A DNA stretch of 64,000 nucleotides, from the NCBI GenBank assembly GCA_965261085.1, contig OZ253442.1, positions 1,792,001 to 1,856,000 of the forward strand. Reading direction: 5' to 3'. This DNA comes from a bacterium (GTDB taxonomy: Bacteria; UBA8248). The translations under genes and the position numbers were made by a program. Shown here piece by piece: positions 26,419 through 31,068 of the stretch; positions within the stretch are counted from its first letter, which is position 1; each line of letters opens with the position of its first letter. Below the pieces are notes generated by a model, which worked only from the letters and a program-made list of their open reading frames with translations, ran no database searches and was not told the DNA's origin.

Positions 26419-27663
26419 ATGGCGAAACCCAAAGTGATTGTCCAGCTATACCCCATGCTGCCGACGGAAAGCCGAGAGGAGCGCGAGCAGAAAAGGCCCC
26501 TGGCCAGGGACAAGGATTTGTACCATCACGTGCTTCATGAATGGGTCGACATCGTGAAGGCCGCTGATGAGATGGGCGTATGGGGCATCAGCACCATTGA
26601 GCACCATCTGCACTCCGAGGGCTATGAGGTAGGCCCCAATCCGGGCGTTCTCAACGCATGGTGGGCCGCTCAGGTGAAAGACGCGAGAGTGGGCGCGCTC
26701 GGTTACGTTATGGCGACGCAGGATCCGATTCGCGTGGCCGAGGAGACGGCCATTCTCGACCACATCACCAAGGGCAAATTCTTCTGCGGCGTGGCGAGGG
26801 GGTATCAGTCCAGGTGGGCGAACATCCTGGGCCAGTTCAGCGACACCCGCGCCACCGTCTCCTCGGACTTGGGCGGCGCCGACGACGTGAAGAACCGCGA
26901 CATCTTCGAAGAGCGCGTCGAGATGCTGCTTAAATTCTGGCAAGAAGATTCGGTGGAAGTGAAAGGAGCGCATTACGAGATTCCCTATCCCTATGAGGAT
27001 GGAATCGATTATCCGGCCTGGAGGAGCGCTCGGGATGCCGGTGCAATCGGCGAGGTCGGCGATGACAATCGGGTGCGAAGGGTGAGCGTTGTTCCCAAAC
27101 CTTACCAAGAGCCTTATCCACCCATGTTTCAAGCCGTGAGCGCGAGCCCGGATTCCATAAAATTCGCGGCGAAACACGGATTCCGGCCCGTGTATTTCAC
27201 CAAGCTGGAAAAGATGGAGGAATTCTCCTATCTCTACATGGAGGAGGCGGCCAAGGCGGGCCACAACTTCGCCCATGGTGAGAGACAATGCGTTTGCCGC
27301 TGGATTCATGTGACGGATACCGAAGAAGAGTACAACGAAAAACTCAGGAAATACGATCAGGATATCTACCAGAACTTCTACGTGCCCTTCTTCCCCCAGT
27401 TCCCGGACGACACGGAAAGCATCGACTGGATCCAGAACATCAAGGAAAGTGGAATATTCCTGGGAGGTACGGTAGATACGCTCAAGCGCGAATGGGAGGA
27501 AACGTATGAAAAAGTGCCTTCGGAGTTCATCACCTTGATCTGGCACTATGCGCAGTGCCCCAAGGAAGAAGTCATTTATGAGTTGGAGACGTTCATGACG
27601 AAAGTGTGGCCCGACCTCGAGTGTCCGGTCTCGAACGGCGTCACTGTCGGCGGCGTCTCCTGA
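26419..27663 (+). CDS. LLM class (luciferase-like) flavin-dependent oxidoreductase
   Basis: EHH, DPIRVAEETAILDHITKG, GVARGY and PKPYQEPYPP motifs. Confidence 0.9.
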   Translation: MAKPKVIVQLYPMLPTESREEREQKRPLARDKDLYHHVLHEWVDIVKAADEMGVWGISTIEHHLHSEGYEVGPNPGVLNAWWAAQVKDARVGALGYVMATQDPIRVAEETAILDHITKGKFFCGVARGYQSRWANILGQFSDTRATVSSDLGGADDVKNRDIFEERVEMLLKFWQEDSVEVKGAHYEIPYPYEDGIDYPAWRSARDAGAIGEVGDDNRVRRVSVVPKPYQEPYPPMFQAVSASPDSIKFAAKHGFRPVYFTKLEKMEEFSYLYMEEAAKAGHNFAHGERQCVCRWIHVTDTEEEYNEKLRKYDQDIYQNFYVPFFPQFPDDTESIDWIQNIKESGIFLGGTVDTLKREWEETYEKVPSEFITLIWHYAQCPKEEVIYELETFMTKVWPDLECPVSNGVTVGGVS

Positions 27664-27726: not shown

Positions 27727-28446
27727 ATGAGCATGTATGAAATCATCGATCTGAGCCAGGAAATCTACACCGGCGCACCCCGGTTTCCCGGGCATCCGGC
27801 GACGACGATCGAATACGTCGCCAGGCACGAAGACGCGGCCAACGCGCCGATTCGGCCCAAGGACATCACCTATGCGGCCATGATGCTCCACATGTGCGAC
27901 CACGGGCCGACACATACCGATTCAGTGAGCCATATCGATGAACGCGAAACGGCTCCGAACATCGATCAGGCACCGCTCGAGTGGTTCATCACCCGGGCGA
28001 TTGCGCTGGACTTCACGGGCAAGGTGGAGCCGATGGAGGAGATTTCCTTGCAGTTGCTGCAGGATGAGCTTTCGGCGGCGAACCTGACGCCGCCCAAAGA
28101 CGGCACGCTTCTTTTCACGGGCGGGCATTTCAAGCGCACTTATCCTACGGACGATTATCTCACCACGTACCCGGGCTTGGGGTATGACGCCGCGAACTTC
28201 CTCTATCGCGAATGCGGCGTGGTGAATATCGGCCAGGATGCGCCCAGCATCGACGCCGGCGTGAACACCACGGAACTGACGTTTCCCTGCCATGTGCTTT
28301 GCCGGGAGCTTCAGCGCCACAACACGGAAAATCTGGCGAATATCGAAGCGGTGGCGGGGAAGGAGTTTCTCTACGTGGGGCTCCCACTGAAAATTCGCGC
28401 AGGCACGGGCTCTCCCGTGCGCGCCGTCGCCGTGATGAACCTTTGA
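27727..28446 (+). CDS. Cyclase family (kynurenine formamidase-like) metal hydrolase
   Basis: IIDLSQ, HGPTHTDS (HxGTHxD variant), ENLAN and PLKIRAGTGSPVRAVA motifs. Confidence 0.88.
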   Translation: MSMYEIIDLSQEIYTGAPRFPGHPATTIEYVARHEDAANAPIRPKDITYAAMMLHMCDHGPTHTDSVSHIDERETAPNIDQAPLEWFITRAIALDFTGKVEPMEEISLQLLQDELSAANLTPPKDGTLLFTGGHFKRTYPTDDYLTTYPGLGYDAANFLYRECGVVNIGQDAPSIDAGVNTTELTFPCHVLCRELQRHNTENLANIEAVAGKEFLYVGLPLKIRAGTGSPVRAVAVMNL

Positions 28447-28570
28447 GCAAACGGTGGCATTCTCGCCTTCATCATGAGTCTGTTGAGGGCGAGAAACTCT
28501 CGAATCATTTTGCCGCCATCATGGTTGTTCCAACGAGAGGGATTCTCGTTTCGTGAGGTGATTCAGGAAA

Positions 28571-28921
28571 ATGCCGAAGGCAGTGGATTGGTATTATCAT
28601 CGATCCGGCTGAAAGACTTGCGCTAAAACGCAAGCGTTTCTTGCGGATAAAGGTATCGGGGTGTCCGAGCAGGCCAGCTCCAAAAAAGACGTGGTGGATG
28701 AAGGCAACGTCGATTCTGTTCTGGATGGCGTGGCGGATGTGTATTCGACCAGGGGCAGAAAGGTGATTCACCTGAATATCGAAGATAAAAAACCTGCGCG
28801 AGAAGACGTGCTGGCTCTTTTGATGGGTCGTTCAGGCACGCTCAGAGCCCCTGTCATCAAACACCAAAGCACCCTCATCGTCGGCTTCGATGAAGAAACA
28901 TACGCACAGGTTTTGACGTAA
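28571..28921 (+). CDS. ArsC/Spx-like thioredoxin-fold selenoprotein (U-x-x-C)
   Basis: ATG 28571 gives MPKAVDWYYHRSG-UGA(28610-28612)-KTCAKTQAFL, in frame with the 28661 ORF. C-terminal GTLRAPVI...LIVGFDEE is ArsC-family-like. SECIS-like hairpin follows the UGA. Confidence 0.85.
28629..28645 (+). promoter_or_regulatory. SECIS-like hairpin
   Basis: CGCAAG-CGTTT-CTTGCG; the loop starts 22 nt after the UGA and has G-U at loop positions 2-3. Confidence 0.55.
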
Positions 28922-28937
28922 ATCTTATCTGGGCGAC

Positions 28938-30392
28938 TTAGAGGGCCAACTGGCCCTGGGTGGGCTCTGCTCAGCAAAACCACGATTCGCTCAAACGAGG
29001 CGGGCGGATTCGATCGGGCGCAAAAACGGCTTTTGCCTGCGCCTGGTCGGGGCGCTCCAGAATATCGGCCGCCAATTCGCGAATCCTCATGAATGTTGTG
29101 GCGGCATCCTCAAGGCGTGCAGCCGCATCTTCAGCGAGGATGAGCGCTTCTTCGTGCAGTTTGTCCATTCTCGCGTCCGGATGATCCCAGCGGTAGATGA
29201 AATTCTGGGCGTCGAGCTCTTTGATGTATCCCTCCATCTGTGTGGAGCCGAGTAAATCGGAACCGGGCGGCACCAGAAGCCTTATGGCCATTTGAATCGG
29301 GTCGACCTCGTCGATTAAGGCGTAGTCTTCGATAAAATCCAGTAAATCAAAATAATCCTGGTCGGTTGTCCAAGGCGTGAATGCGACCAGGGATGGTCTG
29401 ATGGAAACATTCGCCTCCCGGGCGGCTTTCACCACGCGAAAGACGTCTTCCCTGTTGTGTCCTTTGTCCAGATGAGCGAGCACGAGGTCGCTCAAGGACT
29501 CCACCGCTGTGACGAAAAACGCGCACCCGTTTTCCCGGAATTCAGGCAGAAGAGCCTCATGTTTGATCAGGTGCTCTATTTTGGCCGTAAAATCGAAGGA
29601 AAGGGCGGGGAATCTCTCGTGTAAGGCGCGAGCGACTCGAATCGCATGAGACGGGCCGTTCAGAAAATCGGGATCCGCAAAGGTGATGTGGCGCGCGCCT
29701 TGCGCGGCCAAATCTTCGATATCCTCCAGAACCTTCTCTTGGGGCACGATGAAGAAACGGCCTTCATACACTGGCGGAATGGGGCAATGGAGGCACAAGT
29801 GCTTGCAGCCCCGGCTCGCCTCGACGGCCCCGGCGGGATAGTGGTTCTCCCCGCTTATGAGATGCGCGTATGCCTCAAGCGCGGGCAATCCCCTTCGTTC
29901 GGGCTTGAGCAAGGGAATTTTTTCGAGATACGGGCCCGATGTGTGCTCTCTCGTGGCCGCGCCCGGAACCTGGGTGACTTTGGAGGATTGGGACAGCTCC
30001 TGAACGAGCTTGACGAGCGGCCATTCGAACTCTCCACCTATGGCCGAATCCGCGCCGTTTTCGAGAAGATAGTCCTTGTTGAGCAGGCCATAGAGGCCAT
30101 AAAAGCAAATATGGCATTTCGGATTCGTCTCACGTATTTTCGCCGCCACTTCTACGCCGAGCCTGAGCGCCGTGTGCATCGGTACGCTGATGCCGACGAA
30201 TTTCGCATTCGCTATTTTCTCTTGGGAGAAATCCTCCGCCGCCACGTCCATCGCCCAGGGCTGAAAGCCCGCTTCGCGCAAAAAAGCCAGGGGAGAGGCG
30301 ACGGCAATGGGCTGGTGTCCCAACTCGTAGCAGGAGATGAGAACGACGGCGCCGGGTGATTGCCACTTGGATGTCTTATCGTTTCGACTCAC
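28938..30392 (-). CDS. CUAEP/CCAEP-tail radical SAM selenoprotein
   Basis: CKHLCLHC radical SAM motif and N-terminal ISCYELGHQP. After SESWFC the UGA (28973-28971) continues as AEPTQGQLAL-TAA, giving a C-U-A-E-P tail. Confidence 0.88.
28942..28957 (-). promoter_or_regulatory. SECIS-like hairpin
   Basis: Minus strand AGGGCC-AGTT-GGCCCT; the loop starts 19 nt after the UGA and has G-U at loop positions 2-3. Confidence 0.6.
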
Positions 30393-30414
30393 GGCGAATT
30401 CTCTCGGTAGCCAT

Positions 30415-30447
30415 AAAAAAAGCCCCGGACTTATGACGCCCGGGGCT
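30415..30447 (-). terminator. Rho-independent terminator after the iscA/erpA-like gene
   Basis: AGCCCCGG...CCGGGGCT stem with a run of T residues on the minus strand. Confidence 0.7.
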
Positions 30448-30464
30448 CGTAAGGCATTGTTTCA

Positions 30465-30848
30465 TCAAGTGGTGAAAGATTTGCCGCAACCGCACATGCT
30501 CATGGCGTTGGGGTTGTTGATCTTGAAGCCCGAGCCTTGGAGGCCATCGACGAAATCAATTTCCGTTCCCGCGATGACGGGATAGCTCTGGGGGTCCACG
30601 AACACGTCGAGCCCATTGGCGGAGAATACCTTATCTTCCGGATTGGCGGATTCCTCGAAATAAAGGCCATAGTTGTAACCGGAGCACCCGCCTGCGGTGA
30701 CGGCCAGGCGCAGGCCGTAGCCGGTTTTTCCTTCCGCTTCCAGAATCTCGGCCACCTTGCCGTTGGCGGTCAGCGTAACCGAAATGCCTTCAATGGCTTG
30801 CGGTTTCTTTTGAGATTGATCGAATAAATTGATCGTTCCATCCGTCAT
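30465..30848 (-). CDS. A-type iron-sulfur cluster carrier (IscA/ErpA/HesB family)
   Basis: GGCSG and NPNA...CGCGKSF motifs; ATG 30848 has an AAGGAG RBS. Confidence 0.93.
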   Translation of the reverse strand: MTDGTINLFDQSQKKPQAIEGISVTLTANGKVAEILEAEGKTGYGLRLAVTAGGCSGYNYGLYFEESANPEDKVFSANGLDVFVDPQSYPVIAGTEIDFVDGLQGSGFKINNPNAMSMCGCGKSFTT

Positions 30849-31068
30849 CTGTTGTTTCTCCTTGACCTTGATGAGGGCCATTGAAATTTGTTTTTGTCTC
30901 TACAGTTTTGAATATTACTCTTTTTTTGTTTTTTTGCAAAGTCTTAAAACCCATATATCCTTGAAATGTGGGCTTGTTTACGGAGGAAACCGCCTTTTCC
31001 CCGCCGAGTGAGCGGGGGCTTTCCTGTACAAGGGCTGAATATTTCTGCATATTTTGTTATTATAAAAC

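Follow-up and report, generated by a model that had tools for sequence, protein, structure and literature searches.

The DNA analyzed here, a window of 64,000 nucleotides (nt) from a bacterium of the UBA8248 lineage (assembly GCA_965261085.1, contig OZ253442.1, forward-strand positions 1,792,001 to 1,856,000), carries two genes that meet tail to tail and that each contain an in-frame UGA. Positions below are those of the window. The smaller gene (28571..28921, plus strand) encodes a 116-amino-acid (aa) protein related to ArsC and Spx with a U-x-x-C motif, U being selenocysteine (Sec), and the larger (28938..30392, minus strand) encodes a 484-aa radical S-adenosylmethionine (SAM) enzyme with a C-U-A-E-P tail. 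We think that these are probably two independent, already catalogued selenoprotein genes that lie tail to tail by descent, within a syntenic block of one clade. A first-pass annotation of the sequence had joined them into a module for handling arsenic or another metalloid. Its account of the individual genes is borne out below: the distance between the stops, the UGA codons at cysteine-type positions, the hairpins behind them, the Fe-S carrier gene upstream of the radical SAM gene on the same strand, the resemblance of that gene's family to ArsL, and the truncation of both genes by standard gene callers. The alignment of UGA with cysteine (Cys) in homologues and the Sec machinery of the host, which it had left to be checked, were also found. 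The joining of the two genes and the arsenic chemistry fared differently.

The convergent stops, TAA at 28919-28921 on the plus strand and TAA at 28938-28940 on the minus strand, are separated by a 16-nt spacer (28922..28937) in which no terminator-like site was found. Since the two genes are convergent, they have no common operon and are not co-transcribed. In the small gene, the UGA (28610..28612, plus strand) corresponds to residue U14, within G-U-K-T-C. In the large gene, it corresponds to U474 (28971..28973, minus strand), within W-F-C-U-A-E-P-T-Q-G-Q-L-A-L, about 12 codons ahead of the TAA. Both UGAs are predicted to be recoded to selenocysteine, and each has a GUU-loop hairpin 17-20 nt downstream. 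We read them as Sec codons because the host has selA, selB, selD, and tRNA-Sec, because Cys stands at the aligned position in homologues, and because a conserved hairpin follows each. The host genome is a single 4.27-Mb contig, with selA (579 bits) adjoining selB (384 bits), selD (336 bits), and a gene for tRNA-Sec. The selD gene, outside the window at G000:C1:3459-4421, has its own in-frame TGA, and selenophosphate synthetase would thus itself be a selenoprotein. In such a host, SelB would recode each UGA at its selenocysteine insertion sequence (SECIS) hairpin. Support for these hairpins is strong for the radical SAM gene and weaker for the ArsC-like gene, where the hairpin is conserved but covariation is weak. 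An Rfam scan of 28300-30700 at E <= 10 did not detect a SECIS family; its hits were weak ones to the terminator region.

The large protein belongs to NCBIfam NF040546, the "CUAEP/CCAEP-tail radical SAM (seleno)protein" family, with 663.7 bits against a cut-off of 500. The match is full-length, with residues 16-483 covering positions 1-467 of the 468 in the model. Pfam Radical_SAM (PF04055) matches at 53.9 bits, and the CxxxCxxC motif (C196, C200, C203) is invariant in 59 of 59 homologues. Among 120 database homologues, 82 stop at ...WFC, while 36 run on as C-C-A-E-P; one database copy, P0004, is 99% identical to the large protein and is stored as 473 aa ending at the UGA. The alternation between Sec and Cys is also visible in the DNA. 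Across 102 gene tails from related loci, the codon at the U474 position was TGA in 79 and TGC or TGT in 23 (Sec-type and Cys-type genes, respectively). In a collection of 51 genomes of the host phylum, 49 have the radical SAM gene, and 48 of these have one TGA inside the match, the remaining match being cut by a contig end.

The SECIS hairpin of the radical SAM gene (28942..28957, minus strand; AGGGCC-AGUU-GGCCCU) has its loop starting 19 nt past the UGA, and in relatives the AGUU(N) loop starts 19-20 nt past the codon. A count of pairs on one alignment register (73.4% paired, with a slide of +1 doing no worse) was set aside as uninformative because the stem occupies two registers. The hairpin was scored per sequence, with at least 5 pairs required and the Cys-type genes as a control. 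By this measure, 72 of 74 distinct Sec-type genes have it at this fixed position, whereas 2 of 23 Cys-type genes do. Pairing is retained in more than 40 stem variants, including compensatory stems such as GGGCC/GGCCC, GGGUC/GACCC, GGACC/GGUCC, GAGCC/GGCUC, and GGAUC/GAUCC, and the mean folding energy was -15.3 kcal/mol for Sec-type versus -8.2 kcal/mol for Cys-type genes.

The large protein shares with the rest of NF040546 the CxxxCxxC motif, the WFC-U-AEP tail, and the Sec/Cys alternation, and no family-defining difference was found. Some relatives have variant tails, namely, CUTEP, CUSEP, CCVEP, and CCSEP in L054, L092, L098, L099, L107, and L121, and given these tails the name CUAEP/CCAEP is slightly too narrow. 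The family is termed uncharacterised by Haft (2022; bioRxiv 10.1101/2022.07.06.499078), and our literature search found no paper on NF040546 function or on its pairing with NF041106, the family of the small protein. Conservation extends beyond the radical SAM triad and the tail: in the 59 homologues, C21 is kept in 58, C93 in 51, H94 in 58, C96 in 58, and C290 in 55. All nine Cys or Sec positions of the large protein are conserved, four of them outside the triad and tail. Residues C21, C93, H94, C96, and C290 could form an auxiliary site for a metal or an Fe-S cluster within the domain usually labelled B12-binding. The Pfam B12-binding model (PF02310) itself reached 23.1 bits in the large protein, under its cut-off of 32.1.

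For the fold, we relied on a predicted structure of a natural Cys-form homologue that is 55% identical to the large protein (pLDDT, the predicted local distance difference test score, 92.7). The pLDDT falls to 60-68 across the last 16 residues. The nearest solved folds are AprD4, TsrM, OxsB, MgmA, and MiaB, with AprD4 as the top match (E 4e-19; template modelling score 0.69/0.72). The model thus resembles the B12-binding enzymes TsrM and OxsB as well as AprD4. These three have a Rossmann-like N-terminal domain in common with the radical SAM family here, at 14-18% sequence identity, but lack a Cys-Sec tail. A sequence search of the PDB gave distant matches only (9ccb, RimO, TM_1862). From the N to the C terminus, the large protein is predicted to have a Rossmann-like domain, a radical SAM core, and a Cys-Sec tail that is partly flexible.

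Among characterised enzymes, the closest is ArsL, which forms the C-As bond in arsinothricin biosynthesis, and on sequence grounds we regard NF040546 as its sister family. The ArsL model (NF040542) is the second-best family for the large protein, although at 304.9 bits it falls below the cut-off of 450, and the match covers residues 17-423 of 484, stopping ahead of the tail. The two proteins have the same domain order, and each is a radical SAM enzyme, complete in other respects, that is extended at the C terminus by a Cys-rich tail. However, the ArsL tail is RCCLKC, whereas the large protein has PRL[ST]ExWFC-U-AEP on some 60 extra residues, and its Cys-Sec tail is not homologous to RCCLKC. 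According to two preprints (bioRxiv 10.1101/2024.02.01.577332, 10.64898/2026.04.29.721666), ArsL uses a 3-amino-3-carboxypropyl (ACP) radical and binds As(III) through the cysteines of that tail. Haft's preprint also states that CU motifs recur among heavy-metal proteins. By analogy with the RCCLKC tail, the Cys-Sec dyad may serve, like an arm, to hold a soft atom or an intermediate at the SAM-derived radical, and Sec in this position would be expected to bring higher nucleophilicity. Genomic context separates the two families. A link to arsM or arsenic resistance genes, which would be expected of an ArsL, was not seen among the recurrent neighbours of NF040546 that we scanned, and NF040546 is present in nearly every genome of the host phylum.

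The small protein matches NF041106, the "ArsC family (seleno)protein" family, in an NCBIfam profile search (118.9 bits; cut-off 85) and Pfam ArsC at 35.4 bits. Like other members of NF041106, it has the UxxC motif and is about 115 aa long, and it was not found to differ from them. The family was entered as "Arsenate reductase-like protein, UxxC" in a 2026 review (PMC13188914). Residues W7, R11, U14, C17, R92, A93, and P94 are invariant among 25 orthologues, and all 34 above-cut-off matches in the host phylum have a single in-frame TGA. In the database, 67 of 69 homologues of this protein are truncated at the N terminus to 63-102 aa; both full-length ones (P0172 and P0180; 115 and 117 aa) have Cys in place of U14. 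The SECIS-like hairpin of the small gene (28629..28645, plus strand; CGCAAG-CGUUU-CUUGCG; loop starting 22 nt past the UGA) has 98.4% of cells paired over 31 orthologues. Only one compensatory change (A-U to G-C) was seen, and 12 of 500 shuffles were equally good; covariation support is weak because the hairpin overlaps conserved TQAFLA codons. An alternative hairpin at 28617-28634 was rejected as unconserved among orthologues.

The small protein, despite the name of its family, is unlikely to be an arsenate reductase. The best solved relative is Spx of Bacillus subtilis (PDB 7f75, 1z3e; E 4e-6), whose redox switch, C10-x-x-C13, aligns with U14 and C17 and whose LRRP aligns with LRAP; the small protein is about 15 residues shorter at the C terminus. 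PDB chains named arsenate reductase matched at E 0.016-0.33, and the glutaredoxin-type arsenate reductase model TIGR00014 was not among the NCBIfam hits at E <= 0.01. The protein is not a canonical Spx by profile either: Spx family models gave 28-43 bits, all under their cut-offs of 75-159 (for example, the Spx/MgsR models TIGR01617, 43.4 versus 75.05, and NF002459, 34.7 versus 123). The alignments point to an Spx/ArsC (thioredoxin-like) fold with a U-x-x-C redox centre, and we infer that the protein is probably a general selenol/thiol oxidoreductase or a redox sensor.

To act as a module, two genes might be expected to be co-directional or co-transcribed and to stay adjacent across distant lineages, and the ArsC-like/radical SAM pair shows none of this. 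Within the 51 host-phylum genomes, the ArsC-like family is above cut-off in 33. By coordinates, the two genes are convergent neighbours in 27 of the 49 genomes with the radical SAM gene, all in three related genera (g1, 23 of 23 genomes; g2, 3 of 4; g3, 1 of 1) and nowhere else among the 49. This lineage-restricted adjacency is the pattern that the first-pass annotation had itself named as speaking against its proposal. No ArsC-like match at E <= 1e-5 was found in 13 of the 49, although they retain the Sec tail of the radical SAM enzyme. Three genomes (G005, G006, G045) have weak or partial ArsC-like matches elsewhere only, and adjacency is ambiguous in two (G013, G048) owing to contig ends. 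An above-cut-off ArsC-like copy lies away from the radical SAM gene in G003, G004, G042, and G044. For example, the two genes are 438 kb apart in G004, which is a single contig. Conversely, G008 lacks the radical SAM gene but has the ArsC-like one.

The pair sits in a syntenic block of a MarR gene, a luciferase-like monooxygenase gene, a cyclase gene, the ArsC-like gene where present, the radical SAM and IscA genes on the opposite strand, and a ClpB gene that points the other way again. In the window, the luciferase-like monooxygenase gene (26419-27663) and the putative cyclase gene (27727-28446), both on the plus strand, lie upstream of the ArsC-like gene and are syntenic with the pair across the genus. 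In one genome, G037, which keeps this block and a Sec-type (TGA) radical SAM gene, no ArsC-like gene was found genome-wide (E <= 1e-5; completeness 88%). There, the cyclase gene and the end of the radical SAM gene are 190 nt apart with no gene in the gap, where no ArsC-like remnant was found at E <= 100. Elsewhere in the phylum, the ArsC-like gene was observed beside DNA photolyase-like, NAD-binding/DUF2867, and DUF4174 genes, at L129 (G008), L131 and L132 (the two copies in G042), and L133 (G044), none of which is beside a radical SAM gene.

The same picture was obtained beyond the host phylum. A scan of one genome per species recovered at least 598 radical SAM relatives, and 80 of their loci were compared. 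Eight of the 80 are from the host phylum, counting one (L054) whose source label is Tectomicrobia but which is the same place as host-phylum genome G010, and seven of these eight have an ArsC-like neighbour. The 72 loci from other phyla have none. Of the genomes behind the 80 loci, 50 were searched for NF041106, which was above cut-off in 12, one of them G010. In the 11 outside genomes with both families, the genes are never adjacent: no radical SAM gene lies within 1.5 kb of the ArsC-like gene, which is on another contig or 0.28-1.8 Mb away. The radical SAM gene is Sec-type in 11 of 11, as a shared Sec trait alone would predict. Neighbours of the ArsC-like gene elsewhere are heterogeneous and include photolyase with DUF2867 and DUF4174, GT9, DUF1501, and extracytoplasmic function (ECF) sigma factor genes, among others.

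There are points that weigh against the view that the two genes are independent. Their adjacency, with a spacer of 16-220 nt, survives across three genera despite change in the far flanks (g2 lacks the cyclase gene), and this persistence somewhat exceeds what bare synteny would lead us to expect. Many of the genomes are incomplete metagenome-assembled genomes, in which a missing ArsC-like match is no proof of absence. Both proteins would also have a Sec redox centre, and it is plausible that the UxxC protein is a reductant of a Cys-Sec selenenylsulfide. Two further points concern the radical SAM enzyme: the mechanism sketched for it is by analogy only, with the ArsL score and the end of the match at residue 423 as given above, and a terminator-like hairpin behind the Fe-S carrier gene (30420..30448, minus strand) means that the carrier and radical SAM genes may not form one transcript here.

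The first of these points could be taken further, to a redox couple specific to the three genera with the pair, where the UxxC protein would be dedicated to reducing the Cys-Sec selenenylsulfide that turnover leaves in the radical SAM tail. We consider this unlikely, although the adjacency kept in 27 genomes of three genera, including g2 with its different outer flank, would fit, as would the alignment of UxxC with a known redox switch in Spx and the placement of the Cys-Sec dyad in a partly flexible tail. Both UGA sites and parts of all three genes (the pair and the carrier gene) are represented in RNA-library contigs of two studies, and one contig spans the junction (28874-29077). These contigs give no strand, ends, or level, DNA carry-over is possible, and the uncovered stretch at about 29350-29775 is uninformative. 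On the other side, the genes do not share a strand, no match to the small protein was found in 13 radical-SAM-bearing genomes of the phylum that nevertheless retain the Sec tail, and the pair was never adjacent in the loci examined outside the phylum. In addition, the small protein occurs without the radical SAM enzyme in G008 and in the other, varied company described above.

If the ArsC-like gene is not the partner of the radical SAM gene, its other neighbours become of interest. We scanned representatives of the four largest neighbour clusters and of 30 of the 40 further clusters seen in at least 3 of the 80 loci; the ten omitted were host-phylum synteny genes, overlapping-frame artefacts, and one cluster already scanned without a Pfam match. 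In the window, the radical SAM gene is preceded by an A-type (IscA/ErpA-like) Fe-S carrier gene (30465..30881, minus strand; 138 aa; TIGR00049, 115.8 bits), one of two A-type carriers in the host genome. The hairpin between these two genes at 30420..30448 has 11 pairs (8 G-C) followed by a T run, a consensus match only, and given this hairpin they may be transcribed separately or through an attenuator. An A-type carrier adjoins the radical SAM gene in 29 of 30 host-phylum loci, and the ArsC-like gene does so in 22 of these 30. When all 80 loci were considered, clustering placed an IscA- or Nfu-type carrier near the radical SAM gene in 30, and tblastn added 3, under labels that include Poribacteria, Acidobacteriota, Planctomycetota, Methylomirabilota, Nitrospirota, Ignavibacteriales, Bacteroidetes, and Elusimicrobia. 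IscU-type, SufBD, and SufC-like genes are recurrent neighbours too. The recurrent genomic partner of the radical SAM gene is Fe-S cluster supply (IscA, Nfu, IscU, SufBC), and not the ArsC-like gene or arsenic genes.

Other neighbours in the 80 loci are an ATP-grasp ligase (26 loci), DUF169 (18), and an Atg22-like exporter (7). Two gene orders were observed repeatedly. In Acidobacteriota-type loci (L067, L071, L073, L078, L083, L097, L101), the order is ATP-grasp (L-amino-acid-ligase-like), radical SAM, Nfu, and an Atg22-like major facilitator superfamily exporter. In Nitrospirota-type loci (L062, L063, L081, L085, L087, L093, L107), it is radical SAM, DUF169, and ATP-grasp, with a 145-aa protein that has no Pfam match. 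These small conserved clusters resemble a pathway for an amino-acid-like small molecule, and they may be the most promising clue to what the radical SAM family does.

The Fe-S neighbours also bear on what the radical SAM enzyme itself might do. It could be an enzyme that inserts sulfur or selenium by consuming an auxiliary Fe-S cluster, which the adjacent carrier would rebuild, with the Cys-Sec tail relaying the chalcogen. We see this as distinctly unlikely, and as regards the pair it is compatible with two independent genes. It would account for C21, C93, C96, C290, and H94 being conserved beyond the triad, for the B12-binding match staying under its cut-off, for MiaB and RimO appearing among the fold and sequence matches, and for the recurrence of Fe-S carriers. 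However, the closest folds are AprD4, TsrM, and OxsB, not MiaB, and the nearest studied relative, ArsL, showed no auxiliary cluster on its tail. A more specific proposal is that in the host clade the UxxC protein was recruited as a dedicated recycler of the Cys-Sec tail of an ArsL-like enzyme, whose reaction would transfer a 3-amino-3-carboxypropyl group from SAM to a soft atom (S, Se, or As) borne by that tail. We attach a very low likelihood to it; if true, it would amount to selenium-dependent, two-protein formation of carbon-chalcogen or carbon-metalloid bonds, with clusters from an A-type carrier of its own.

The proposal of the first-pass annotation, that the radical SAM enzyme makes or breaks a carbon-metalloid bond on a substrate at the C-U tail while the ArsC-fold protein reduces the substrate, would fit the kinship with ArsL, the ACP radical and As(III)-binding cysteines of that enzyme, and the CU motifs of heavy-metal proteins. 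We regard it as highly improbable, given an ArsL score under cut-off, a tail that is not RCCLKC, a UxxC motif that aligns with the CxxC of Spx and not with arsenate reductases, and a presence in 49 of 51 phylum genomes and at least 598 species, which is easier to reconcile with housekeeping than with arsenic chemistry. ArsM, Acr3, ArsB, ArsA, and ArsD were all absent from the recurrent neighbours scanned, where a weak ArsR-type helix-turn-helix (HTH) match, amid general HTH matches, came from one cluster of HTH regulators (3 loci), and no Acr3 was found in the host genome. The sole host match to NF008823, the arsenite methyltransferase family, lies about 451 kb from the pair.

Both families were already catalogued, and what is new here is the negative evidence on their pairing and a clearer view of the recurrent Fe-S neighbours. 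For annotation, the two genes are stored truncated in the host genome and in most relatives and should be read through the UGA. The pairing itself carries little biological weight. The radical SAM family is the closest relative of ArsL and has a Cys-Sec tail; the species with it, at least 598, include nitrite oxidisers as well as Planctomycetota, Poribacteria, and Acidobacteriota. A better guide to its function than the ArsC-like gene is offered by its recurrent neighbours, that is, the Fe-S carriers and, in some phyla, the ATP-grasp ligase, DUF169, and the exporter.

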